The translations under genes and the position numbers were made by a program. From the UHGV virus genome UHGV-0096653: DNA of 16,501 nucleotides, one strand, 5' to 3'. Below, piece by piece: positions 599-16,501 of the stretch. Source of the DNA: a virus. Position 1 is the first letter of the stretch; each line of letters opens with the position of its first letter. The notes beneath the pieces are model-generated. The model made no database searches. It worked only from the letters and a program-made list of their open reading frames with translations, and was not told where the DNA came from.

Positions 599-937
599 CT
601 ATTTCCCTGAATTTACGACGAAACTGTTCGAGCGGACTGAAGCATTCATGTTCATAGCCTTCACGGAGGTAGATAACCCGTTGTGTTTCCGGCTCCCAAC
701 GAATGACTCTGACGGGCACTCCGTAGTGATCTTTGAACCAGCGGTTAACTTGTCGCAAAGGACTGTCTCCTTCTGCCGGTTGAAATCACCCACAGCCCAC
801 TCTGCAAAGCTGTGGGTTACAATTTCCCTGTCACCTGGTACATTCACTGCATAGCAATACTCCACCTTCGCTTTTCCACCCGGTACAGGAAGTGCAATCA
901 GTTGCGAACGACGGTAGTGTGTTGTTAAACTGTTCAT
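599..937 (-). CDS. Hypothetical protein (112 aa), translationally coupled to upstream CII-like gene
   Basis: ORF track; its ATG (937-935) overlaps the TGA (936-934) of the upstream gene as ATGA; same strand as the early operon. No recognisable motif. Confidence 0.4.
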
Positions 938-1524
938 GCGTTAGTTTCTCCACAACCAGAAGCAATCGACGCCACGACGCCCGGAGCTGCACACTCGCGG
1001 GCGTTACTCTTTTCTGGAGCGCAAAAGATTTTGTAGACCAGTGCTGCATGCTCCTGGAGCTTCGAAATTGACAGATACAACTCATCATTAATTGCTGTCT
1101 GCTCGTGTGGCTCCACTACCCCATCTTCGATTGCCGAACGAATCTGCTTTGAGTAACTCCCGATCTGTTCGATGACTTCCAGCAGGCGCTGGTTAATATC
1201 GGCGTTGTCCACATCCTCGACGTCAGGAAGAGACACAAAGACGCCATTTGCAGACTGCGCCACAGCATCAGCAATGAAGTGAGTGCCACCAGCACGCTGT
1301 AAAACCATTGCCCATCCCAGCGGGAAAATCTGATCGCCATCAGCACGAAGGCGGTTAAATAATGCGTTCTCTGTTACATCCAGCCAGTCAGCTGCTTCAG
1401 CGTAACCACCCGGCAACGTTGCGATAGTTTTTCTGACAGCTTTCACGTACCACTCAGGCTGTTTTTCTACTTTCCAGTGATGCTTACCCACGGCTATCTC
1501 CTTAAAACTGTGGTTACTTTCCAT
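934..1524 (-). CDS. CII-like early regulatory protein (possibly CP76/YdaT-type), 196 aa
   Basis: ORF directly downstream of the Cro-like gene in the same operon, the position of lambda cII or Rac ydaT. Family assignment is by position and general resemblance only; the annotated start overlaps the cro-like stop by 11 nt, so the true start may be internal. Confidence 0.4.
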
Positions 1525-1762
1525 CTGATAAGTCTTTAATCTTTTGAAAAATATCTGGACGTAATTTTTCTTTTGATACGCCAGTGGTCATTTCAATAAA
1601 TATCGAGAGCTTTGCAGGGGGACGCTTTTCTCTGTTCAACCAGTTCCAGACATGTTGTTGCTTTACTAAACGACCACTGCTGGCTGTGAGCTTCCGAGCC
1701 AATTCTGATTGACCACCAGCCAGAGCGATTGCCTCTGATAAGGCTAATTGCTCAGGTGTCAT
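1514..1762 (-). CDS. Cro-like HTH regulator (YdaS-like)
   Basis: 82 aa with HTH segment AIALAGGQSELARKLTASSGRL; divergent from the CI-like repressor; good RBS (AGGAGA) before ATG at 1762; consensus TATAAT -10 upstream on the minus strand. Confidence 0.7.
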   Translation of the reverse strand: MTPEQLALSEAIALAGGQSELARKLTASSGRLVKQQHVWNWLNREKRPPAKLSIFIEMTTGVSKEKLRPDIFQKIKDLSDGK

Positions 1763-1899: not shown

Positions 1900-2586
1900 G
1901 TGAAAACATTGGCAGAAAGACTAAAAAGCGAAAGAGAAAAAGCAGGAATGAGTCAGGCGCAACTAGCTGAAAAAATTGGGCTTTCACAACAATCCGTAGC
2001 GAAAATCGAGAATGGAGAAACTCAACAGCCTCGGAAAATTAAAGAGATTGCTAAAGTGTTAGGGGTTTCTCAAAAGTGGTTGCAATTGGGCATTGAGGAT
2101 AACGCGTCTTTCCCAGACCTTGTTGTAAAGGAGGCTGAAAGTACAGCATTAGATCCTGACATTTTTGCAAACATTCCAGTCCTAGATGTCGAGTTATCAG
2201 CGGGTAATGGATGTTTGGCTGAAATAGTTGAATCAACTGTAGACTGGTTCCCGCTAAGAAGGATTGATTTAAGAAAAGCTGGTGTATGTGTCTCCAATGC
2301 AAAGATCGTAAAAATTTGGGGCAATAGTTTACTACCTGTACTTAACAATGGAGATTTTGTTGCTGTTGATGTTTCCCAAACGGTTCCTATTCGTGATGGG
2401 GATCTTTATGCCATACGTGATGGCGTATTACTTAGAGTTAAAATATTGATCAATTTACCTGACGGTGGTCTGATTCTAAGAAGTTTCAATAAAGATGAGT
2501 ATCCAGATGAAATTCTCACCTTCGAAGATAGGCGTTCCAGAATTCACGTTATAGGTAGAGTATTCTGGTCATCGCGCACTTGGTAA
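1900..2586 (+). CDS. CI-like phage repressor, N-terminal HTH plus C-terminal S24 (LexA-like) autopeptidase domain
   Basis: 228 aa; HTH MSQAQLAEKIGLSQQSVAKIENG; Ala-Gly cleavage site in ELSAGNG; Ser-Lys dyad context (WGNSLLP ... LLRVKIL); GTG start at 1900 preceded by GAGGGGG. Confidence 0.85.
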   Translation: MKTLAERLKSEREKAGMSQAQLAEKIGLSQQSVAKIENGETQQPRKIKEIAKVLGVSQKWLQLGIEDNASFPDLVVKEAESTALDPDIFANIPVLDVELSAGNGCLAEIVESTVDWFPLRRIDLRKAGVCVSNAKIVKIWGNSLLPVLNNGDFVAVDVSQTVPIRDGDLYAIRDGVLLRVKILINLPDGGLILRSFNKDEYPDEILTFEDRRSRIHVIGRVFWSSRTW

Positions 2587-2772: not shown

Positions 2773-2830
2773 TAAAGTTGTTGACAACAACCAAAACAAC
2801 AACTAGATTACAACTTAAAGATGTTGCAGT
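2773..2830 (+). promoter_or_regulatory. PL-like promoter with second operator cluster
   Basis: -35 TTGACA (2781-2786), 17-bp spacer, -10 TAGATT (2804-2809). Carries near-copies of OR motifs: TAAAGTTGTTGACAAC (vs TAAAGTTGTTGATAAC at 1794) and ACAACTTAAAGATGTTG (vs ACAACTTTTAGATGTTG at 1843). Confidence 0.6.
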
Positions 2831-3090: not shown

Positions 3091-3585
3091 TTATGCTTGT
3101 TGCTCATCATTAATATCCGTTAGTTCATTCTCTAGAGGTAGATCTCCCGCACACCAAGCTATAAATTTTTCTTTGGTTGTTAAATCGTACTTAGTTGGAA
3201 CACCAGCAAAAATACAGGCCCGAATGAAAGCCGCTCGTTCAAGTGATTTCCATGGATTACTATCAGTATCTTGGATTTTTAAATACCTAGCTTGCAACTG
3301 ATCTTCAGAAAGAGTATCAGACTCAATCAGCAGTCTTTTGTAATGTCTCGCTTGTTCTTTAGACATCCCAGCCTCCTGGCCGAACTGATAGACCAACTGA
3401 AGAACCGAAAGTACGGCAACAAACAAACCAAAAATAAATAAATTACTGTACGGGGCGAAAACTGAAAAACCGAGAACGATTAACATCAACGTTATTAATT
3501 TATCAATGCGAGTTAACAACGTGTAATTCATCTTCTCCAATACATAAGAGTAGTGAATATAAAATTTATAATCGTCTCTGGTCAT
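3091..3585 (-). CDS. Two-TM inner-membrane protein, candidate superinfection-exclusion (SieB-like) protein
   Basis: 164-aa ORF (probable start at internal ATG 3531 with GGAG RBS, giving MNYTLLTRIDKL...). Two hydrophobic helices (LITLMLIVLGFSVFAPY, LFIFGLFVAVLSVLQLVY) then a charged C-terminal domain. AT-rich relative to flanks; immediately beside the immunity region. Confidence 0.55.
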   Translation of the reverse strand: MTRDDYKFYIHYSYVLEKMNYTLLTRIDKLITLMLIVLGFSVFAPYSNLFIFGLFVAVLSVLQLVYQFGQEAGMSKEQARHYKRLLIESDTLSEDQLQARYLKIQDTDSNPWKSLERAAFIRACIFAGVPTKYDLTTKEKFIAWCAGDLPLENELTDINDEQQA

Positions 3586-3967
3586 ATTAGTCTCAGTTTT
3601 CCTTGGGTGGTTTTGGAGGAACTGGAGGCTTTTGTCTTAACGGCACATGCCTCTCCTCATACTTATCTACACATAGATCCATATAAATCCTTATCGTTGT
3701 TGGGGAGGGTTACATAATAACCAAATCCTTGTTGTTGGGGAATAACCAGGTCCACCTCGCCTGATGTGGCTAAAAGCAGGCACATAACAGCTAAGTATTT
3801 TCAACCAGAGAGAATCCTTAGCGTTGTGGTGAATGCGGCTCAGCGCACGCGGGTTAAGGTTGAGGCTGACAGTCGACCTTCTGTGGATACCCACCCGTCT
3901 GGTGTGCAACCTTCGCCAGGCACCGGGAGGCACCCGGCACCACAACTTTATGCTGTGTGTAGTCCTG

Positions 3968-4013
3968 GCGGTACCAGTTTGTACACTTGCTTCCGGCTGG
4001 TACCGCTCTTTTT
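3968..4013 (+). terminator. Rho-independent terminator
   Basis: Perfect 10-bp inverted repeat GCGGTACCAG ... CTGGTACCGC followed by TCTTTTT. Confidence 0.6.
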
Positions 4014-4150
4014 ACAAAACAGAGAAGAGCATCACCGGACGACGGGCTCATAACCCAATCCATCCGGGCGGCTGCCACCGCAGGTGTTCTTCTCTGTTTT
4101 GTGGAGAAACCAACCGACCTTGCAGGGTCGATATGATGAGGAGCAGCAAA

Positions 4151-4513
4151 ATGGCTAGCGAACGCAGTACTGATGTGCAGGCATTTATCGGGGAGCTGGA
4201 CGGCGGCGTATTTGAAACCAAAATCGGCGCAGTTCTCAGTGAAGTCGCTTCCGGTGTGATGAACACGAAAACCAAAGGTAAGGTCTCACTCAACCTGGAA
4301 ATCGAACCATTTGATGAGAACCGTGTGAAAATCAAACACAAACTCTCATATGTTCGCCCGACTAACCGCGGGAAAATTTCCGAAGAAGACACCACCGAAA
4401 CGCCGATGTATGTCAATCGCGGTGGTCGCCTGACTATTCTGCAGGAAGACCAGGGACAATTACTGACTCTTGCCGGTGAACCTGACGGAAAACTCCGCGC
4501 AGCAGGTCATTAA
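4151..4513 (+). CDS. yfdP: YfdP-like hypothetical protein (120 aa)
   Basis: GAGGAG RBS 7 nt before ATG 4151; first gene of an operon whose gene order and product lengths (120/274/178/120) match the E. coli K-12 CPS-53 yfdPQRST cluster as recalled from memory. Confidence 0.5.
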   Translation: MASERSTDVQAFIGELDGGVFETKIGAVLSEVASGVMNTKTKGKVSLNLEIEPFDENRVKIKHKLSYVRPTNRGKISEEDTTETPMYVNRGGRLTILQEDQGQLLTLAGEPDGKLRAAGH

Positions 4514-8149: not shown

Positions 8150-8181
8150 AAAGGACAGCCCCATCACGGGGCTGTTTTTTC
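8147..8181. terminator. Bidirectional rho-independent terminator between the orphan ORF and the portal gene
   Basis: CAGCCCC-ATCAC-GGGGCTG stem-loop with TTTTTT on the plus strand and a T-run on the minus strand; the portal stop codon lies in the loop. Confidence 0.7.
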
Positions 8182-9210
8182 ATCAAGAAGAGCATAAGAG
8201 TTAAAACGGATCACCTCTTCGCCAAGCCAGTCATTGATGTGCTTCATAGCCTCCATGACGGGCATCAGCTCGTTAATTGCGTAAACCCGCGCTGCCTTCT
8301 CCACATCGCCAAACGCACTTTTTTCGCCCGGCATCGCCCCCATCAGTTGCGGCGGAACGCGGTGCGCAGCCAGCACATCATCACGGGATGCCGCCTTAAC
8401 ATTCATGAATTCATCTTTTGCGGTGATCTGCTGGAACGGCAAAATTTGCACCCCCTCTTTGCCCCCGTTGGGCGCATGAATGAGCACGTTTTTAAACGCA
8501 CCACCACCACGTGCCCCCTGTAGCGTTTCTTTCAGGGAGTCCATGCTTTCGCGGTTTACCTGCGCTGCACCGATGTAGATGATGCACCCGGCGTGGGATC
8601 CGTTGTCGTAGTACAGTTTTCTGAACATGTCCGCCGAATGAGAAAGGCTGGCCGAGAGTAATGCGCCAAGATATTCCGGCATGCCGTAGATTTCCTGGTT
8701 AATATCCGGATTCATCAGGTGGCACACTTTGCCAGGACGAAACTGAAACGCGTCCTTGCCATCCTGCACATACCACCATGATTCAAGATCGCTTCCGCGT
8801 CGCATGTATTTCGCCAGTGCGTGCCGTAATTTAAGCGGTTCGCCGAGCATATTGCTTCGAAGCTCAAGGTATGCGTTACCGAACACAAACCAGTCCAGCG
8901 CCAGCGCCGAGAAATCCTGCCGGGAAAGCAGCGGGTGCGGGATGTAGCAACCGAGTAATACATTGCGCTTAAAGTAAAGCGCAGACTGATGCCAGGACGT
9001 TTGCCGGGCAGCTCTTGCCAGACCGTACCAGTCCACCGGTGTTTCATACCACCGCCCGTTATCAGCACAGTACATATTGTCCAGCAGGTCATGCCCGGTC
9101 AGGCGATAAGGACCATCAAATGTGAATGCACTGAGCGATGATTCTTTCCTGAGCGCATCAGCGAGATCAATGCGTGAACTCATGCGCACTTTTTTATTTT
9201 TTCTGCTCAT
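8164..9210 (-). CDS. Q: P2-type portal protein (gpQ-like)
   Basis: 348 aa; size and position immediately downstream of, and overlapping, the terminase large subunit on the same strand, as in P2 Q-P. Confidence 0.8.
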   Translation of the reverse strand: MSRKNKKVRMSSRIDLADALRKESSLSAFTFDGPYRLTGHDLLDNMYCADNGRWYETPVDWYGLARAARQTSWHQSALYFKRNVLLGCYIPHPLLSRQDFSALALDWFVFGNAYLELRSNMLGEPLKLRHALAKYMRRGSDLESWWYVQDGKDAFQFRPGKVCHLMNPDINQEIYGMPEYLGALLSASLSHSADMFRKLYYDNGSHAGCIIYIGAAQVNRESMDSLKETLQGARGGGAFKNVLIHAPNGGKEGVQILPFQQITAKDEFMNVKAASRDDVLAAHRVPPQLMGAMPGEKSAFGDVEKAARVYAINELMPVMEAMKHINDWLGEEVIRFNSYALLDEKTAP

Positions 9211-10961
9211 CAGAACTCCATAACCGTGAAACGCTCGTTTTCTCCTTCGCCGCCAATTGGTTCGTTAATGACAGCAAGCATGGTTGCCCACGCAAGGTCG
9301 CCGTGGCTGATCCCCCTCGCGCGGTCCGTTTCGTAAGTGATAAAGCCGCCCGGTGTTTTCACCTTACGCACGGCGTTAAAGGCTGCGACCAGCTCGCGTT
9401 CGGCGCGATCGTATTCCCACCGCCCGGCGCGCATTATTTGCAGCATTTTCAGTACCAGCGACCGTTTTGATGACAGCGTGAAGGTGTACGGAATAGCAGC
9501 AGGGAAAAACCGTTTCACTATCTGATAAACAGCCTCCCCGTTCCCGCCTGTCACATCAATGCCGATGTGTTCCACGTTGTAGCGACACGTGAACTCTTCA
9601 ATGACTCTGGCCTGTTCTTCAAACTCCAGCCCCTGAACGCGTCGCGTCTCCACCGTTCGAAAACGGCCTCCAGGAACAGCCGGAGGAACCACCACGGACA
9701 CAGCGCCGCTGTCGCCGTTTCCACTGCTGCCGTTTGCGTCATACCCAATCCATACCGGACGATTCCCCATCGGGCGGGGAGCAAAAGGTTTCCAGTCTTT
9801 CCAGTCGTCGTATCCGTCAACACCACAGCCAATCAGGATATTCAGGTTAAATGCCGATTCCCCTTCGCGGACAAACTCACACATATAGAGATTGAGGAAC
9901 TCGTCTTCGGTGTTTTCATCACGAATTTCATCAATATCGGTGTGTTTCCAGCCGTGATTAACCACATCTTCCAGCGTGACAATTTGCCGCCACGTCCGGT
10001 CAGGGCAGATAAGCCCGTTATGCAGCGTTTTCCAGTCCACAGAAAAACGCTGGCGTTTATGCGAGGCCTTTTTCTCGTTCCAGCGGTCGCCGTTCCAGTA
10101 GGCGTATGCCTCGTGCGTTTCGGTGGATGGCGTGGAGAAGTAGGTGCGCCGCAGTCCGCTGAGGGTTGCCATAGCGCCAGCCACCTTGCGCAGTTCAGCA
10201 AAGCGACTGACCCAGAAAAATTCATCAAAATAAAAATTGCCCGTGTAGGACTGTGCCGTCGCAGCAGAAGTACCAAGAAAATGCAGCTCTGCGCCGTTGG
10301 AGAGGATGATTTTATCGCCCCCTTTCAGCTCCACATCAACTTCAGATGCAGCCTCCTGAATAATGCTTTTAAACTGGAACGCCTGACGACGCGACGCAGA
10401 CAAAAAAATCTGGTTACGCTGGTAAGGTTGCGCCACATCGTCACGCAGCGCCATCAGCAGTGCTTCCTGAGCAAAATACCAGGTCGCCCCAATCTGTCGG
10501 GATTTCAGGATCATCCTGTTACGTATCCCGGCCTCCCTGCAAAGGGTCAGGGAGTCAAACCAGCCCCGCTGATGCCACTCCAGCCTGCTGATGATTTTTT
10601 CCCGCAGTGCGGCAATCTGTTCCGGCGTGAAATGATTTTTGAGTTTTTTCGCCCGGCTTTTCTTTCCTGTGGCCGTCGCATCCGGCTGGCCATCATGCAG
10701 TTTTTTAAGCTGCCGGGTCAGCAGGTCTATTTCCTTGAAGTCACCACCTGTTTTATTCTGTTTTTCAGTAAGCTGGATGAGGCGCGAATCGATGGACTGC
10801 GTGACACGCTGCACGGGTGGCGTTTCATCCCACTGGTCGCGTTTTTTCCACGCATAAATCGTGTTCGGGTTTATTCCCATCAGACGTGATATTTCTGCGG
10901 GCGGATAACCCTGCCAGTAAAGTTGCCGCGCACGCTGGCGCACAAAAGCGTCCTGAATCAT
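9210..10961 (-). CDS. P: P2-type terminase large (ATPase) subunit (gpP-like)
   Basis: 583 aa; N-terminus MIQDAFVRQRARQLYWQGYPPAEISRLMGINPNTIYAWKKRDQWDE typical of P2-family gpP; divergent from the O-N-M-L operon. Confidence 0.85.
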   Translation of the reverse strand: MIQDAFVRQRARQLYWQGYPPAEISRLMGINPNTIYAWKKRDQWDETPPVQRVTQSIDSRLIQLTEKQNKTGGDFKEIDLLTRQLKKLHDGQPDATATGKKSRAKKLKNHFTPEQIAALREKIISRLEWHQRGWFDSLTLCREAGIRNRMILKSRQIGATWYFAQEALLMALRDDVAQPYQRNQIFLSASRRQAFQFKSIIQEAASEVDVELKGGDKIILSNGAELHFLGTSAATAQSYTGNFYFDEFFWVSRFAELRKVAGAMATLSGLRRTYFSTPSTETHEAYAYWNGDRWNEKKASHKRQRFSVDWKTLHNGLICPDRTWRQIVTLEDVVNHGWKHTDIDEIRDENTEDEFLNLYMCEFVREGESAFNLNILIGCGVDGYDDWKDWKPFAPRPMGNRPVWIGYDANGSSGNGDSGAVSVVVPPAVPGGRFRTVETRRVQGLEFEEQARVIEEFTCRYNVEHIGIDVTGGNGEAVYQIVKRFFPAAIPYTFTLSSKRSLVLKMLQIMRAGRWEYDRAERELVAAFNAVRKVKTPGGFITYETDRARGISHGDLAWATMLAVINEPIGGEGENERFTVMEF

Positions 10962-11115
10962 TGCTCCCCCTGAGTAATTACAGGAAGATTACCCGCGCGC
11001 GAAACCGTTCTCCTTAACCCCCTGCTCTGACTGTTTTCTTACAACAAAAGCCCTTTGTATCTGCCTGTTACGCTTTGCCATCATGACTGAAGAACCAGTC
11101 AGAGGGGCAAAAGCT
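10962..11115. promoter_or_regulatory. Divergent late-promoter region between P and O (P2 PP/PO equivalent)
   Basis: Position only; no clean TGT-N12-ACA activator dyad could be confirmed by eye. Confidence 0.35.
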
Positions 11116-11952
11116 ATGGCTAATGAAAAAAAGACATCCCGCAAAAAGTTTCGCGTGGCTGTCTCCGGATCAACTGTTGATGGCCGTGAAATCAGTCCGG
11201 TGCATCTGCGTGAAGCCGCCGAGAACTTCAACCCGGATGTTTACGCTGCCCGCGTGAACGTTGAGCACTATCTCTCGCCATGCCCGTCAAGCGAATTTTC
11301 CGCAATGGGCGATGTCACCGCACTGAGTACGGAAGACATTACGGAAGGTCCGCTGGCCGGACGTACTGCGCTGTATGCAGAAATCGAACCGACCGAGCGC
11401 ATGAAGCAGCTTGTCGCGGACGGCAAGAAAATCTATTCCAGTATCGAACTGCACCCGCAGTTCTCCGTTAACGGGCGCGCCTATCTGGTCGGGCTGGCGA
11501 TGACCGACACCCCGGCAAGCCTGGGCACTGAGCGCCTGAAATTCACGGCACAGCAACGTCAGGCGGTAATGACGTTCAACAGTGTCCAGGGTGAAGCGCC
11601 GCTTATCTCCGAAGCCATCGAGTCTGAAATCATCGAAATGGCAGAACAACGCCAGGAAGAAGGCACCCAGTGGTTTAACCGCGTAATGGGGATTATTGGC
11701 CGTGGCCGCAAAGCGGATGACGCCAGTTTTTCCCGCATTCAGGAAGCGGTGGAAGGCGTTGCAACGTCACAGGCCGACATTATCGACCGTTTTAATGTGC
11801 TGGAAACCCGCCATCAGCAGGACCGCCAGAAAATCACGTCACTGAACACAGAGCTGACAGCATTGAAGGAAAAACTGCGCACGCAGGACGGCGATCCGCA
11901 GAACCGCTTCACCGCAACGGGCGCAGCCTCCGACCAGCTGGCTGACTTCTGA
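11116..11952 (+). CDS. O: P2-type capsid scaffolding protein (gpO-like)
   Basis: From ATG 11116 (GAGGGG RBS): MANEKKTSRKKFRVAVSGSTVDGREISP... resembles the recalled P2 gpO N-terminus (MAKKVSKFFRIGVEGDTCDGR), and LVGLAMTDTPASLGTE matches LVGLAVTDDPASLGTE. Confidence 0.8.
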   Translation: MANEKKTSRKKFRVAVSGSTVDGREISPVHLREAAENFNPDVYAARVNVEHYLSPCPSSEFSAMGDVTALSTEDITEGPLAGRTALYAEIEPTERMKQLVADGKKIYSSIELHPQFSVNGRAYLVGLAMTDTPASLGTERLKFTAQQRQAVMTFNSVQGEAPLISEAIESEIIEMAEQRQEEGTQWFNRVMGIIGRGRKADDASFSRIQEAVEGVATSQADIIDRFNVLETRHQQDRQKITSLNTELTALKEKLRTQDGDPQNRFTATGAASDQLADF

Positions 11953-11975
11953 TAAGACAAAGGAGCAAATTTTTT

Positions 11976-13028
11976 ATGAATCTGGTGATGTCAGATATTA
12001 CCCGCAACAAGCTGGGTTGCTATATGGCGCAGCAGGCGTCGCTTAACAATATCCCGGTATCTGCACTGGTATCGCGATTTACCGTGGAACCCGCGGTGCA
12101 GCAGCGTTTTGAAAACGCCTCAAAGGAAAGTACCGAATTTACGAAAAGAATTAACGTGATCGGCGTGACCGACCAGAAAGGCGAAAAAATCCTCCTGGAC
12201 ACCACCGGGCCAATTGCACGCACGAATAGCAGTTATGACGGCATCAAACGCCGTAACCCGAATAACGTGATCGATATGAAGTCTCGTCAGTACCAGTGCG
12301 AACAGGTGAACTACGATACCTTTATTTCGTACCCACAGCTTGATACCTGGGCGGCCCACAGCGATTTTCAGTCCCGTATCAGTACACAGATCGCCCGGCA
12401 GGTAGCGCTTGATCGCATCATGATTGGCTTTAACGGCACATCCCACGCCTACGAGTCTGATTTTCACACCAACAAGCTGCTTCAGGACGTTAACGTGGGC
12501 TGGCTGGAGCACATCAGAACCGATGCCAGCGAGCGCGTAATGAATGACGTGACGCTGACCTCCCGCAACATGGACAACACTGTGGCGCACGCGGGTAAGT
12601 ATGCGAATGCCGATGCTCTGGTACAGGATGCGCGCTCATCCCTGCTGGATGAATGGCACAAGGAAGCTGACGACCTCGCGGTGATTATGGGGCGCAACCT
12701 GTTTAACTCGCTGCGTCTGCCCGTGCTGAACAGCATCAGCGGCCAGAATCCCAATGCGGAATTACTTGCCGGGCAGCTCATCCTGTCATCGCGCACCATT
12801 GGCGGGCTGGGCGTGTTCCTTGCGCCGTTCTTCCCGGATGCAACGATGCTTATCACCTCGTTCAACAACCTGTCGATTTACTGGCAGAAAGGTTCAATGC
12901 GTCGCCTGATGAAAGACGAGCCGGAATACAACCGCATCGCCACCTACCAGTCCATCAATGACGCTTATGTCGTTGAAGACTATGGCAAGTGCGCAATGAT
13001 CACTGGCCTGAAGTTCGCCGACAGCTAA
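11976..13028 (+). CDS. N: P2-type major capsid protein (gpN-like)
   Basis: 350 aa; motifs shared with recalled P2 gpN: FTVEP, IMIGFNG (IMAGFNG), GWLE, NLSIYWQ (NLSIYY), YVVEDY. Confidence 0.85.
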   Translation: MNLVMSDITRNKLGCYMAQQASLNNIPVSALVSRFTVEPAVQQRFENASKESTEFTKRINVIGVTDQKGEKILLDTTGPIARTNSSYDGIKRRNPNNVIDMKSRQYQCEQVNYDTFISYPQLDTWAAHSDFQSRISTQIARQVALDRIMIGFNGTSHAYESDFHTNKLLQDVNVGWLEHIRTDASERVMNDVTLTSRNMDNTVAHAGKYANADALVQDARSSLLDEWHKEADDLAVIMGRNLFNSLRLPVLNSISGQNPNAELLAGQLILSSRTIGGLGVFLAPFFPDATMLITSFNNLSIYWQKGSMRRLMKDEPEYNRIATYQSINDAYVVEDYGKCAMITGLKFADS

Positions 13029-13037
13029 TCAACTCAC

Positions 13038-13056
13038 GGCGGGCATCATGCCCGCC
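13038..13056 (+). other. Intergenic perfect stem-loop between N and M
   Basis: GGCGGGCAT-C-ATGCCCGCC; no U-tract, so likely an mRNA processing/stability element rather than a terminator. Confidence 0.4.
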
Positions 13057-13073
13057 TGTAACGGAGAGAAAAA

Positions 13074-13874
13074 ATGATTACTCCTGCACAACAACACTGG
13101 CAGAACGTGATGGCACAGCGCGCAGGCCAGGCGAATGAAGGTGTGGACCACGCCGCGCGTACCGCGCATGAAGAGGTGCTGTATCGTCTGCGTCTGGCAC
13201 AGGCCAGGCTAAAGGGCGTACAGGCCAGAAGCGCGAAAGCCGCCATCAAAAAAGAGTTGTTGCCGGACTTTTCCGGCTGGATTGAGGGAACGCTGGAGAC
13301 TGACGGCGGGCAACAGGACGAAGTAATTGCCACGCTGATGGTGTGGGCGATTGACTGCGGCGATCTTCCGCTGGCGCTGCGTATTGGTGCATATGTGGTC
13401 CGTCACAACCTCATCATGCCGGATAACTTTGGCCGTACTGCTGCCACGGTACTGACCGAAGAAATCTGCAACCCGGTACTGACGCAGGCCGGGACGGATG
13501 CCGACGCGGATTTATCCGCCTTTATCGAACCACTGGACACACTTTGGGAAATTGTCGCCAACCAGGACATGCCGGACGAAGTGCGCGCCAAATTATGCAA
13601 GGCGTGTGCCTTTGCCCGTCGTGGCCTGACCGATGCAGACAACATGGCCTCATCACTGAAGCTGCTGCGCGAAGCGATGCACCTGAACCCGAACGCAGGT
13701 GTGAAACGCGAGATTGCAACCCTTTCCCGCGCCCTGAAAAAAGCCGATTCCGCAGCCGCACCAGAAGACGCCAGCACACCGCAGGCGCAGGACGAAAGCA
13801 GCAAAAGTAAAAAGACAACGCAGAAGCCTGCAACACGAAAAACCACCGCGACGCAGAAGGCAAAGCGCGGTTAA
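13074..13874 (+). CDS. M: P2-type terminase small subunit (gpM-like)
   Basis: 266 aa; MITPAQQHW... and DMPDEVRAKL match recalled P2 gpM (MTSPAQRHM..., DMPDEVRAKL); basic C-terminal tail. Confidence 0.8.
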   Translation: MITPAQQHWQNVMAQRAGQANEGVDHAARTAHEEVLYRLRLAQARLKGVQARSAKAAIKKELLPDFSGWIEGTLETDGGQQDEVIATLMVWAIDCGDLPLALRIGAYVVRHNLIMPDNFGRTAATVLTEEICNPVLTQAGTDADADLSAFIEPLDTLWEIVANQDMPDEVRAKLCKACAFARRGLTDADNMASSLKLLREAMHLNPNAGVKREIATLSRALKKADSAAAPEDASTPQAQDESSKSKKTTQKPATRKTTATQKAKRG

Positions 13875-13890
13875 CGACTGACCCCGTCAG

Positions 13891-13962
13891 CGGGCGGCGT
13901 GCGCGGTGTTCCGGTTTGACTCCGTGACCGTTTACACCGCGCACCCACCGCCCGATTTTTTC
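13891..13962 (+). terminator. Long imperfect hairpin plus T-tract between M and L (possible intra-operon attenuator)
   Basis: CGGGCGGCGTGCGCGGTGT ... ACACCGCGCACCCACCGCCCG followed by ATTTTTTC. Confidence 0.45.
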
Positions 13963-13975
13963 AGGAGTGAACCCC

Positions 13976-14470
13976 ATGAGTATGGTTGCCAGAACTAACC
14001 CCGGCCCCGCAGAGGACGACATCACCGACACCGATGATGGCGATACCCGTATTTCAGCGGGTGCATTCTGGCCGGATATTGTGCTGCGCGAGCTGCGTCT
14101 GGCGGTACGACTGCCGGGCCGCGTGACCACCTCCCGCCTGCTGCATACCGCCACCGGGGCCATAGCACACGTTACCCGCGAGCTGGAAGCATGGCAGCAG
14201 GAACAACAGGCGGCTGGCTATCAGACGCTGGCCGATGTTCCGGCCCCTGTAATTAACGGAGAAAGCGTCAATCTCTGGCACTGGCGCAATGCTGTTTATA
14301 CCGCCACACGCGCCCTGATTCTGGAGCGTTACCGCGATGCGGACACAACGGACAAGGGCGACCGCCGGGCGGACGCACTGGATATACAGACATCGGATTT
14401 GTGGCGCGATGTGAGCTGGGCCATCTCTGACATTCTGGGACGACCGCGAATGTTTGCGGAGCTGTGCTGA
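13976..14470 (+). CDS. L: P2-type head completion/stabilisation protein (gpL-like)
   Basis: 164 aa from ATG 13976 (GGAG RBS); LADVPA..INGESV and ELWRD resemble recalled P2 gpL (LADVPADDIDGESI, ELWRD). Confidence 0.75.
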   Translation: MSMVARTNPGPAEDDITDTDDGDTRISAGAFWPDIVLRELRLAVRLPGRVTTSRLLHTATGAIAHVTRELEAWQQEQQAAGYQTLADVPAPVINGESVNLWHWRNAVYTATRALILERYRDADTTDKGDRRADALDIQTSDLWRDVSWAISDILGRPRMFAELC

Positions 14471-14670
14471 TGAAAGTGAAGGCACTGGAAGGCGACACCG
14501 TGGATTCGCTCTGTTTCCGGTACTACGGCACGACACAGGGCGTCACCGAAAAGGTGCTGGATGCCAACCCCGGACTCTGTCAGCAGGTATTTCTGGACGC
14601 CGGGCAGGAAGTGGAGATGCCGGAGCCGGAGAAGAAGAAACGAGAAATGATTCAGTTGTGGGGGGAGTAG
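14470..14670 (+). CDS. X: P2 gpX-like small protein (LysM-like tail protein X)
   Basis: 66 aa MKVKALEGDTVDSLCFRYYGTTQGVTEKVLDANPGL resembles recalled P2 X (MKTFALQGDTLDAICVRYYGRTEGVVETVLAANPGL); ATGA overlap with L. Confidence 0.8.
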   Translation: MKVKALEGDTVDSLCFRYYGTTQGVTEKVLDANPGLCQQVFLDAGQEVEMPEPEKKKREMIQLWGE

Positions 14671-14672
14671 CA

Positions 14673-14996
14673 GTGAGCACCATTCAAACAGGGATCACAG
14701 AGCAGGTTATTGCGTGGCTCTTTGACCACCTGCCAACGGTGTATGCAGTAGGCGCGGCTGTCAGCATTTCCGCGCTGATGAGTCTTTATGACGGACGAAC
14801 ACTGGTTCAGACCGTAACGGGATCGCTGGCGTGCGGCGTTCTTGCCATGGCCGTGGCCGGGTCGCTGCGCTTCTTCGGGATCCCTGAGGATGCAGTGACG
14901 TTTTTTGGTGCCTCAATCGGTTTTATGGGCGCAGAGAAAGCACGCGACAAGGTTATTGCAATATTTGATCGCAGGGTGAAGGAGAGGAACGAATGA
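14673..14996 (+). CDS. Holin (three predicted TM segments)
   Basis: GTG start after GGGGGAG; hydrophobic segments PTVYAVGAAVSISALMSLY, VTGSLACGVLAMAVAGSL, AVTFFGASIGFMGA and a charged C-terminus; directly upstream of the endolysin with ATGA overlap. Confidence 0.65.
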   Translation: MSTIQTGITEQVIAWLFDHLPTVYAVGAAVSISALMSLYDGRTLVQTVTGSLACGVLAMAVAGSLRFFGIPEDAVTFFGASIGFMGAEKARDKVIAIFDRRVKERNE

Positions 14997-15385
14997 GCAA
15001 CACATTTAAATTCAGCAGCCGAAGCGAAAAGAATTTGCAGGGTGTAAATCCTGATCTGGTGAAAGTGACCCGACGGGCGCTGGAAATCTCGGAAGTGGAT
15101 TTTGGTATCACCGAAGGATTGCGCAGTCGTTATCGTCAGAAGCAGCTCGTGACCACAGGCAAGAGCCAGACCATGAACAGTCGCCATCTCACAGGGCATG
15201 CCGTGGATGTTGTGGCTTATGTCGGCAACCAGGTGTCATGGGAATGGCCGCTGTACGAAAAAATCGCAGCAGCATTCAGACAGGCCAGCCAGGAACTGAA
15301 TATTCCGGTGGAATGGGGCGGCGACTGGAAGACCCTGAAAGACGGACCGCATTTTCAGTTACCACACGGAGCCTATCCGGCATGA
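14993..15385 (+). CDS. Endolysin, peptidase M15 family (L-alanyl-D-glutamate endopeptidase type, T5 Lys-like)
   Basis: 130 aa; zinc-ligand context SRHLTGHAVDV and C-terminal GPHFQL; overall resemblance to the recalled T5 endolysin. Confidence 0.75.
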   Translation: MSNTFKFSSRSEKNLQGVNPDLVKVTRRALEISEVDFGITEGLRSRYRQKQLVTTGKSQTMNSRHLTGHAVDVVAYVGNQVSWEWPLYEKIAAAFRQASQELNIPVEWGGDWKTLKDGPHFQLPHGAYPA

Positions 15386-15789
15386 AGCTCTGGCCCACGC
15401 TTGGCGTCGCTTTCCTTCTGATTGCCGCATGGGGAACATCCATGCGTCTGTCGTGGTCGCTGGGCCGGGAGAACGCCAGAAACGAAGCGCAGGCCAGCAC
15501 CCTGAAAAGTACCGTCGACACACTGAATATCATCAGCGCCGGGGTACAGGATATGCAGCAGGTGCTGGCTCAGCTCCGCGCGGAAAATCAGCAACGCAAT
15601 CAGGACGGAGAGGTAAGACGTGAACAGCTACGCAACGATATTGCAAAAGATGAATGCGCCCACGCTTTGCCTGACGCTCGTTTTACTGACAGGTTGCGCA
15701 GGCACGCAGAACGCGCCAGGGCCAGCGCCGTCAGTCCGGCTTATACCGCAGACGCTGACCATGCCGGTAACGCCTCCCCCCTTCCCTGA
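15382..15789 (+). CDS. i-spanin (Rz/LysB-like)
   Basis: ATGA overlap with endolysin; N-terminal TM (LWPTLGVAFLLIAAWG) then a Q/R-rich coiled-coil-like region; contains the o-spanin gene in another frame. Confidence 0.7.
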   Translation: MKLWPTLGVAFLLIAAWGTSMRLSWSLGRENARNEAQASTLKSTVDTLNIISAGVQDMQQVLAQLRAENQQRNQDGEVRREQLRNDIAKDECAHALPDARFTDRLRRHAERARASAVSPAYTADADHAGNASPLP

Positions 15790-15931
15790 CCCACCCACAT
15801 GGGGAAACCTCGGAATATGGGGCGACCGCCTTCTGGATGCACTGGAAACCTGTAACGCGGATAAACGGGCCATTGCTGAACTGGATAAGAGAATAGCCGA
15901 ACTGACACACCAGACGGGAGTAACACAATGA
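15620..15931 (+). CDS. o-spanin (Rz1/LysC-like outer-membrane lipoprotein), overlapping the i-spanin in a different frame
   Basis: GTG 15620 after GGAGAGG (alternative ATG 15650); lipobox LLTGC; proline-rich mature region PVTPPPFPDPP; ATGA overlap with downstream gene. Confidence 0.65.
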   Translation: MNSYATILQKMNAPTLCLTLVLLTGCAGTQNAPGPAPSVRLIPQTLTMPVTPPPFPDPPTWGNLGIWGDRLLDALETCNADKRAIAELDKRIAELTHQTGVTQ

Positions 15932-16501
15932 CCAGTAAGAACTTTGCACTGATTACAGCCATGACACAGGCTGAACTGACTCAAAAGGTGAATGAACATC
16001 TTGCGAAAGGGTGGCATCTTCAGGGGGAGACGCGGGTTGCCTACGAACCCGGCACCCCGTGGTATCTAATGCAGGCAATGGTGGCCGATGGCACTACAGA
16101 CATCTCACCTGATTCCCCCCAGCACGGCAGAGTGCCGGAGTGGTATTACGTGGTGGTACTTGCTGGTCAATCCAATGCCATGTCATATGGTGATGGAATG
16201 CCGCTGCCGGATTCTTACGATGCGCCACACCCACGCATTAAGCAACTGGCCCGTCGCAACACAGTGACTCCCGGTGGTAAAGCATGCGCATTTAACGACA
16301 TCATTCCGGCAGACCACTGCCTGCATGATGTTCAGGATATGAGCGCACTGAATCATCCGAAGGCAGACCTGAGCAAAGGGCAGTACGGCTGTGTCGGCCA
16401 GGGCTTACATATTGCCAAAAAACTGCTTCCGTATATCCCGAATAACGCGGGGATCCTGCTGGTACCATGCTGTCGTGGTGGTTCGGCATTCACCCAGGGC
16501 G
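15928..16501 (+). CDS. DUF1737 + SGNH-hydrolase sialate O-acetylesterase-like protein (NanS-p-like), 3' end beyond window
   Basis: Open frame from ATG 15928 to the window end; N-terminal segment MTSKNFALITAMTQAELTQKVNEHLAKGWHLQGE (DUF1737-like) followed by VVLAGQSNAMSYG, the GQSN catalytic-serine block of SGNH esterases. Confidence 0.65.
   Translation, partial: MTSKNFALITAMTQAELTQKVNEHLAKGWHLQGETRVAYEPGTPWYLMQAMVADGTTDISPDSPQHGRVPEWYYVVVLAGQSNAMSYGDGMPLPDSYDAPHPRIKQLARRNTVTPGGKACAFNDIIPADHCLHDVQDMSALNHPKADLSKGQYGCVGQGLHIAKKLLPYIPNNAGILLVPCCRGGSAFTQG

Follow-up and report, generated by a model that had tools for sequence, protein, structure and literature searches.

A divergent, pseudoknotted relative of the STnc100 RNAs in the presumed early-left leader of a lambdoid phage

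What does a phage carry at the head of an early operon, in a gap without a convincing gene? The question arises in the UHGV virus genome UHGV-0096653, of which a stretch of 16,501 nucleotides (here, the window) was analysed; a gap of 565 bp lies there between a membrane-protein gene and yfdP. In most of this gap (3586-4013) the initial annotation, made from the letters alone, had seen a candidate small RNA (sRNA) or regulated leader ending at a strong terminator. That description was right: a full-length, sub-threshold match to the Rfam family STnc100 (RF02076) and strong covariation now support it. Judged from its sequence, the flagged stretch is a divergent, unannotated "ymfH-type" member of the STnc100/PasD prophage RNA family, situated in an early-left leader. 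Our confidence in the family homology and in the structure is high. RNA of the STnc100/PasD kind is already known; new are a previously unseparated subfamily, its different genomic address and a better-defined architecture.

A covariance-model (Rfam) search, which had been suggested for this locus, was run and matched STnc100 on the plus strand at 3793-4015 with 44.6 bits, across model positions 1-206 of 206. The E-value was 3.8e-8 in a 1.1-kb search and 5.6e-7 in a scan of the whole window, where this match was the only one of its kind. The curated gathering score of RF02076 is 47 bits. A scan at the gathering threshold found nothing in the flagged region, STnc100 appearing only in E-value mode, and standard pipelines leave the element without annotation because its score falls just below this threshold. 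Its relatives in phiES15 (40.6 bits), ST64B (35.1), JL22 (34.4) and e14 (29.2) likewise all score below gathering. Rfam matches to DicF, ftsZ-DE and the hairpin ribozyme were not significant. Two sequence blocks also tie the window to the family. The 22-mer CACCGGGAGGCACCCGGCACCA (3921-3942) occurs exactly in at least 120 viral contigs, where its flanks cannot be aligned to the window by BLAST, and a second block, UGGUGAAU with a hairpin, lies 61-109 nt 5' of it; both are common to the window and canonical STnc100 copies. Furthermore, a model made from ymfH-type sequences alone retrieves canonical STnc100 copies at 40-71 bits. The 15-nt sequence of the P5 hairpin, part of the invariant core, was also looked for in the literature, without a match.

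The plus strand of 3823-3946 forms a five-helix pseudoknotted core of ~125 nt (124 nt) that is homologous to STnc100 and kept by covariation; Rfam, the minimum free energy (MFE) fold and covariation all delimit it. The features that the initial annotation had listed are all where it placed them, but this core had been missed. In the MFE fold, a 9-bp closing helix surrounds several hairpins and is followed by a terminator. The closing helix, P1 (3823-3831/3938-3946), opens through an AAU junction (3832-3834) into P2 (3835-3850), P3 (3851-3854/3893-3896), P4 (3897-3904/3914-3921) and P5 (3923-3927/3933-3937, loop AGGCA). Ahead of it stands a small 5' hairpin, P0 (3793-3819, plus strand), which both the MFE fold and the Rfam alignment contain and which corresponds to the first Rfam model positions; inspection by eye gave equivalent small hairpins in ST64B and JL22. 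The RNA is assigned to the plus strand by its G-U pairs and by the strand on which every match lies.

A covariation model, R1, was built from five sequences and five helices (P1-P5) and retrieved 79 elements from 53 loci, of both the ymfH type and canonical STnc100. In 76 distinct sequences, 96% of the cells in P1-P5 are paired, compared with 35-47% when the partners are slid by 1-3 columns; double changes, affecting both sides, were seen in 30 of 31 pairs across the ymfH and canonical types; and the covariation score is 0.525 against at most 0.10 in the slid controls, all of these pairing and covariation numbers being somewhat inflated by the fitting of the R1 alignment to the model. When 14 representatives were folded independently by MFE, P1, P2 and P5 were recovered in all of them and P3 and P4 in the majority, and compensatory changes in P1 are visible already in a plain MAFFT alignment. 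Loops and junctions are invariant across sequences that are otherwise not alignable.

In the pseudoknot, the nucleotides that directly follow the P3 5' strand pair with the P4 loop, in the window 3856-3862 (AAGGUUG) with 3907-3913 (CAACCUU). More than 12 distinct sequence pairs are found at these positions, for example AAGGCUG/CAGCCUU in phiES15, AGACUGACAAA/UUUGUCAGUCU in Pantoea phages and CUGGUG/CACCGG in canonical copies. In an alignment that was not fitted to the pseudoknot, 70% is paired, compared with 22-52% after sliding and 55% after shuffling, and none of 500 shuffles reaches the observed value. Tested sequence by sequence against shuffles, the pseudoknot is significant in the Pantoea group and in some Buttiauxella and JL22-type representatives; the 7-bp pairing of the window copy alone is not, so that support for it is comparative, and weaker than that for the five helices.

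Set beside canonical STnc100, the window RNA has the closing helix, the UGGUGAAU junction, the invariant CCGGG-AGGCA-CCCGG hairpin and the terminal terminator, as well as the covarying helices and pseudoknot, and both RNAs are prophage-borne. They differ in score (44.6 bits for the window RNA and 29-41 for its relatives, against a gathering score of 47), in three flipped P2 pairs (GCGGC..GCGC in the window for CCCCC..GGGGG) and in address: the window RNA is early-left, after the repressor, whereas canonical copies are late, in the interval from Q or stx to nanS or holin. The DnaA-box-like TGTGGATAC of the initial annotation is indeed present at 3882-3890, but it falls within a small RNA hairpin, shows no conservation in ST64B and is incidental.

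Could the same stretch encode a protein? Mechanical open reading frames (ORFs) in the gap comprise 3766-4053, 3833-4513 in frame with yfdP, and two on the minus strand; translation would yield a YmfH-like protein from GTG at 3826 or, from ATG at 3833, a YfdP of 226 aa with an extended N-terminus. RefSeq lends some credit to a coding role, with a "frameshifted hypothetical protein" in the window and the gene ymfH in Escherichia coli K-12, and 30 of 37 distinct variants keep the frame open between 3833 and yfdP. The other seven, however, break it, and the gap ORFs have no Pfam or PHROG match. Among 29 near-identical variants, only 4 of 114 sites vary in the core, without third-position bias or codon periodicity, compared with 34 of 359 in yfdP, 27 of these at position 3; between lineages, the helices change by compensatory substitutions and indels. 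Within the 22-mer, invariant elsewhere, the K-12 copy departs from all others by a 1-nt deletion and a G-to-A change. The ymfH ORF exists because of that deletion, and the two "proteins" therefore differ in frame over their C-terminal halves. On the substitution pattern and the frame comparison, the coding reading was rejected and retains next to no likelihood; the earlier remark that the gap lacks a convincing ORF is borne out. In the e14 prophage of K-12, ymfH (L124, 3564-3887) overlies a mutated copy of the RNA that scores 141 bits with R1 and only 29 with Rfam. Over-expression of ymfH has been reported as a trigger of the retron-Sen2 toxin RcaT (preprint 10.1101/2020.06.22.160242), a phenotype that may be an RNA effect.

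Downstream of the core, a single-stranded linker, UUUAUGCUGUGUGUAGUCCUG (3947-3967, plus strand), contains CUGUGUG at 3953-3959. This linker is similar to rrn boxC and a candidate for a seed or Hfq-proximal segment. The CUGUGUG motif is kept in phiES15, ST64B and the loci L174 and L188, and of 53 distinct flanks, which are not phylogenetically independent, 30 have TGTGTG in the 60 nt on the 3' side of P1, where the background is 1.1%. The linker leads into an intrinsic terminator (3968-4013, plus strand) with a 10-11 bp stem, a 19-nt loop and a UCUUUUU tail. The perfect 10-bp stem described in the initial annotation was confirmed: GCGGUACCAG and CUGGUACCGC (3968-3977/3997-4006) pair at 10 of 10 positions, and TCTTTTT follows at 4007-4013. 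The G+C-rich stem and U-run are those of a Rho-independent terminator; the loop is larger than usual, and a terminator scan missed the hairpin because its loop limit was 8 nt. In the STnc100 Rfam model, this terminator is the last hairpin.

The terminator and the yfdP leader make up a mosaic module (3966-4150) that other phages carry at 98-100% identity. In the leader (4014-4150, plus strand), a second long hairpin with 25-nt arms (4014-4038/4078-4102) is followed by UUUUGU, a small hairpin (4113-4132), GAGGAG and the yfdP ATG at 4151. The fold of 3940-4160 has z = -5.56, and none of 200 shuffles is as stable. Itself highly structured, the leader may be a second terminator or an attenuator. 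Many phages, among them Stx2c phages, cdtI and mEp460, carry it with 98-100% conservation.

The direct repeats upstream of the core raise a separate question. Two repeats of ~18 bp had been described, and both are present beyond chance on the plus strand: copy 1 is ATCCTTATCGTTGTTGGGGA at 3687-3706 (as a module, AATCCTTATCGTTGTTGGGGA at 3686-3706) and copy 2 is ATCCTTGTTGTTGGGGAA at 3725-3742 (as a module, AATCCTTGTTGTTGGGGAAT at 3724-3742). The exact 11-mer GTTGTTGGGGA occurs twice. A third copy, AATCCTTAGCGTTGT (3813-3827, plus strand), had been overlooked; it is a boxA-like motif that runs into the P1 5' strand. The pattern AATCCTT-N(0-4)-GTTGT has three occurrences in 16.5 kb, all on the plus strand, at 3686, 3724 and 3813, where 0.01 is expected and none of 200 shuffles reaches three. 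The 5' module of the RNA consists of a pyrimidine-rich boxA-like motif and the 5' strand of P1, and the repeats are three copies of this module, with copy 3 as the functional one and copy 1 a partial duplicate. Copy 2 begins a longer unit, U (3724-3790, plus strand), which continues into the conserved block CCACCUCGCCUGAUGUGG-CUAAAAGCAGGCACAUAAC (3752-3790), and copy 1 is a local duplication of the start of this unit. phiES15 has a U-like arrangement, ATCCTTACTGGTTGTGTGGGAA...GGCACACAAC, the block is common to Citrobacter, Lelliottia and Buttiauxella loci, several genomic loci also keep the 5' motif with it, and its 3' part, ...GCAGGCACAUAAC, is similar to ...CCGGCACCACAAC of the core. Unit U thus looks like a degenerate, minimal family member in tandem with the full one, a reading that we infer, because the fold of U alone is not significant.

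An alternative is that the repeats are auxiliary CI operators or sites for a CII-like activator, controlling either the RNA or the divergent membrane-protein gene. The apparent operator of the phage is the perfect 7-1-7 palindrome GTTGTTGACAACAAC (2777-2791), which overlaps the -35 element of the predicted early-left promoter pL (TTGACA-17-TAGATT, 2781-2809, plus strand; a strong promoter-like site in the promoter scan); this site is taken as pL/oL. Each repeat holds GTTGTTG, one half of this palindrome, and the window has 11 copies of GTTGTTG where 3 are expected, 7 of the 11 lying in oR, oL or the repeats. However, the repeats are half-sites, directly oriented, the third copy is P1's own 5' strand, and phiES15, with a different repressor, has the same motif ahead of its unit U. 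In co-occurrence tests, GTTGTTGACAACAAC was absent within 1.4 kb in 33 of the 34 other loci carrying both repeats and the membrane-protein gene in 31 of them, whereby the repeats were rejected both as CI/CII operators and as part of the membrane-protein gene's module; the CII-like regulator sites proposed in the initial annotation find no support, and an operator role is very improbable. Copy 1 is present in about half of the near-identical loci regardless of immunity type or upstream gene, and 35 loci carry the core without any repeat. From locus to locus the repeats follow the RNA; they are not tied to the immunity region or to the membrane-protein gene. The GGTTA/TAACC palindrome GGTTACATAATAACC noted between them (3708-3722) exists, but its 5-bp arms are unremarkable and it is incidental.

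How widespread is the element, and where does it sit? Near-identical DNA is found in about half of the complete E. coli genomes (partial-query matches in 2780 of 5426, and at least 80% of the 3680-4150 query matched in 1610 of 5426) and in phages SfV, SfII, SfIV and others. More distant copies lie in e14 (K-12), Salmonella ST64B, Cronobacter phiES15 and the P1-like JL22 and SJ46. The ymfH-type pattern, searched as GGTGAATGCGGC...CCGGGAGGCACCCGG, occurs in Citrobacter, Lelliottia, Pseudescherichia, Buttiauxella, Pantoea, Shigella, E. coli and many viral contigs, and its matches collapse to 31 representatives at <96% identity. In ~10 divergent phages, the ymfH-type element is preceded by a CI-type repressor gene of the same orientation and stands before the early-left genes; among these are the window, e14, ST64B, phiES15 and five genomic loci from Buttiauxella, Pantoea, Lelliottia and other hosts. 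The element of mEp460 likewise follows such a repressor gene. This position is not the late-region context typical of STnc100, whose canonical copies follow Q, stx2B or a methylase gene and precede nanS or holin. By flank reading, about one-third of the ymfH-type representatives have a terminator after the core. The genes that follow the terminator-less members are diverse small phage genes, such as tciA in JL22.

The mosaic module itself led to a third subtype. mEp460 and many Stx2c phages carry 3966-4150 while the core is seemingly absent by sequence, but an R1 scan of mEp460, the only one of these phages scanned, found a third subtype directly ahead of the module (L240, 2346-2494). Its P2 is GCGCAGGCUGAUGCGC and its P5 is CCGG-AGAUCAGCA-CCGG. 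The same subtype also appears as weak upstream matches in JL22.

Tandem arrays are a family trait, with four copies in L009 (2320-3360), five in L056 (4371-5465), three in L016 (3140-3747) and four in JL22 (L122, 1803-2630). Spacing is ~250 nt in several arrays and up to ~450 nt in others. The JL22 array lies between transfer RNA genes and tciA, and its upstream members overlap the minus-strand coding sequences plp and gp76.

What, then, does the RNA do? By analogy with its relatives, the element is probably the terminated leader of the early-left operon, releasing a structured RNA that most likely acts in trans. RNA polymerase starting at pL, or at an unmapped promoter within 3586-3690, would mostly stop at 3968-4013, with the hairpin at 4014-4105 and its U-run as a back-up stop, and a stable RNA of ~200-330 nt would be set free. 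Until the polymerase becomes termination-resistant, these terminators would also leave yfdPQRST unexpressed. The released RNA would act in trans as a small regulatory RNA, by homology with its Hfq-binding relatives; the conserved core could be a scaffold or host-factor platform, and the variable and linker parts could provide specificity. A terminated leader or small RNA is favored because the relatives are bona fide RNAs. In EDL933, RNA-seq reads were counted for the 11 STnc100 copies, one of which was also seen on a Northern blot (PMC5331693). PasD1 and PasD2 of enteropathogenic E. coli, intergenic RNAs of lambdoid prophages that are reported to have structure and ancestry in common with STnc100, are Hfq-bound, Northern-validated and abundant in RIL-seq (sequencing of ligated interacting RNAs) with Hfq (bioRxiv 10.64898/2026.05.13.724894). 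They lie near Q and lpxR in late regions, unlike the window RNA, to which they are likened here by description and not by sequence.

Several observations weigh against this reading. The Rfam score of the window copy does not reach gathering, and no sigma-70 promoter adjoining the RNA passes the promoter scan. The evidence for a discrete RNA and for Hfq binding comes from canonical copies and PasD, and extends to the ymfH type by analogy. Hfq seed-pairing sRNAs do not usually have a conserved pseudoknotted core whose loops are invariant, and the terminator belongs to a separately exchangeable mosaic module. Finally, about two-thirds of the ymfH-type representatives have no terminator and abut a downstream ribosome-binding site (RBS), with the start codon 14-125 nt away; this counts against a trans-acting RNA because a classical one needs no such arrangement. 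As for promoters, TATAAA at 3682-3687 is a mere lead, and a sigma-54 promoter in the conserved upstream block (TGGC-N-GC) was dropped, since the GG-GC spacing varies among lineages.

The main rival is a cis-acting leader, which we rate as unlikely but serious. Here, the core would bind a conserved host component (RNA polymerase, Nus factors, or a ribosome or RNase component) and control read-through of the terminator, or stability or translation of the first early-left gene, as a nut/put-type module with a large pseudoknotted domain in place of boxB. Such a role would suit the constant position and orientation of the element at the head of early-left operons in the ~10 divergent phages, the lack of an N-like ORF between pL and the terminators, the many members placed just 5' of a start codon, and the invariance of loops and junctions. 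The flanks agree as well. With consensus sequences taken from PMC2724277 and PMC10250234, 9 of 42 distinct flanks have a boxA-like motif (at most two mismatches to UGCUCUUUA) ahead of P1, where the background is 2.8%, and the boxC-like UGUGUG follows the core at the frequency given above; both are enriched in the ymfH subfamily and absent from canonical copies. The counted flanks are, however, not phylogenetically independent, and the boxA (CGCUCUUA / UGCUCUUUA) has only a weak match, AAUCCUUAG, ahead of the window element, exact UGCUCUUUA being confined to 2925-2933. Moreover, the rightward operon of the window has no copy, antitermination has no need of arrays of 3-5 tandem copies, the family member of HK639 lies elsewhere, between terminators of the Q-controlled operon, and the two experimentally defined RNA antiterminators, of HK022 and HK639 (putL-like), are unrelated.

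Comparison with the antitermination systems themselves points in both directions. As in lambda nutL and rrn, the window element lies in the leader of a repressor-controlled leftward operon, upstream of terminators, with a pyrimidine-rich GCUCUU-like motif before the structured element and UGUGUG after it. Unlike lambda nutL, it has no 15-nt boxB hairpin with a GNRA-like pentaloop but a 124-nt five-helix pseudoknot, lies 1 kb from pL and has no N gene nearby, and yfdP is without an arginine-rich N-terminus. HK022 and HK639, lambdoid phages without N, encode structured RNAs in their pL leaders, put and a putL-like RNA, respectively. The latter feature, at 126 nt, is similar in size to the window core; put, in contrast, is a two-stem RNA of ~70 nt (PMC9378689). 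R1 gave no match in HK022 20000-40751 or at HK639 34187-34312, and a relation to the put RNAs was rejected for want of a match in sequence or structure. The HK639 putL-like RNA at 34187-34312 contains GCUCUUUG and GGUGUGUAUGG motifs but is unrelated to the family. The STnc100 member of HK639 differs in lying in the late region: four terminators are annotated between Q and holin (L242, 43768-45217), and the canonical member (44801-44928) sits between the second and third.

A riboswitch-like sensor was also weighed, in which the core would be an aptamer that binds a small molecule or ion, and the expression platform would be the terminator or, in other members, the RBS. A pseudoknotted multi-helix core with conserved junction nucleotides and two kinds of downstream context, terminator or RBS, would be in keeping with it, as would the perfect complementarity in the window between the P4 3' strand (CGCCAGG, 3914-3920) and the base of the terminator 5' arm (CCUGGCG, 3964-3970). 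This antiterminator-like alternative pairing is, however, not conserved in phiES15 or ST64B and was rejected. The terminator is not interlocked with P1, because the freely exchanged module starts at 3966; the downstream genes are functionally unrelated, and tandem arrays and stable RNA accumulation fit a sensor poorly. A riboswitch is accordingly given only a slight chance.

Two groups of phage sRNAs offer parallels to a terminated leader acting through its released RNA. Lambda 6S RNA and StxS (pR'-tR') are likewise short terminated-leader RNAs, and canonical STnc100 occupies the equivalent interval from Q to the lysis genes. Such short RNAs arise because an antitermination-controlled operon begins with a terminator. 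Lambda 6S RNA and StxS start at the late promoter, and we know of no conserved pseudoknotted core in either. DicF of the Qin prophage is an sRNA in an operon downstream of a DicA-type repressor, before kil-like genes, and the phiES15 layout is DicF-like. DicF differs in being a 53-nt processed RNA, and the Rfam DicF match over the window terminator reaches only 15.4 bits (E 2.4).

A bolder proposal, doubtful at present, is that the STnc100/PasD superfamily does not consist primarily of seed-pairing sRNAs but of a modular, often tandem pseudoknotted domain that binds an invariant host component and acts in cis at the heads of antitermination-controlled operons, early-left and late. The ymfH type would then be an N-independent nut-like device with boxA- and boxC-like flanks, and the "sRNAs" of lysogens would be terminated by-products. 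Whatever its function, this widespread structured RNA has been missed by standard annotation, and thousands of genomes carry a "hypothetical protein" or "frameshifted" pseudogene in its place, or, in the case of E. coli K-12, the y-gene ymfH; the published over-expression phenotype of ymfH may need re-reading as an RNA effect. The analysis provides an architecture for the whole superfamily, of five helices and a pseudoknot with an invariant 22-nt core, and shows three subtypes, tandem arrays and a position strictly tied to the heads of those phage operons that open with terminators. The role of STnc100 RNAs thereby becomes directly testable with simple reporter constructs.

The surroundings of the element are those of a lambdoid phage. 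The window starts with an immunity region in which family matches identify genes for a CP76-type CII (934-1524, minus strand), a YdaS-type Cro (1514-1762, minus strand) and a CI-type repressor (HTH_3 and Peptidase_S24; 1900-2586, plus strand). Half-sites of GTTGTTGACAACAAC and TAAAGTTGT motifs recur between cI and cro (1786-1870). One TAAAGTTGT on the minus strand (3942-3950) overlaps the 3' strand of P1, probably by chance. The sole exact rrn boxA consensus of the window, UGCUCUUUA at 2925-2933 on the plus strand, lies ~110 nt 3' of the predicted pL and directly follows a hairpin (2904-2925) that also scores as a minus-strand terminator. It could be a nutL- or rrn-like site or the U-rich tail of a bidirectional terminator, and is a better candidate for Nus-factor loading than the boxA-like motif of the RNA element. 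The membrane-protein gene (3091-3585, minus strand; 164 aa, PHROG 6315) precedes the gap, and yfdP (4151-4513, plus strand) is followed by yfdQ (DUF2303) and more early-left genes.

Further phage RNAs were met in ST64B, where a C4 antisense RNA (79.7 bits) and an IsrK RNA (64.3 bits) lie side by side on the minus strand (L125, 909-1097), within the annotated gene sb41 of the rightward, replication-gene arm. ST64B thus has three phage RNA families around its switch region, C4 and IsrK together with the STnc100-type element. In the remainder of the window (8164-16501), ORFs of 348 and 583 aa on the minus strand are followed by ORFs of 289, 350 and 266 aa on the plus strand, and the gene order and ORF sizes resemble a P2-type portal, terminase, scaffold, capsid and small-terminase block. 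This block stands directly beside the lambdoid early-left genes, with no integrase called between them, and the arrangement could reflect a hybrid or two adjacent prophages.

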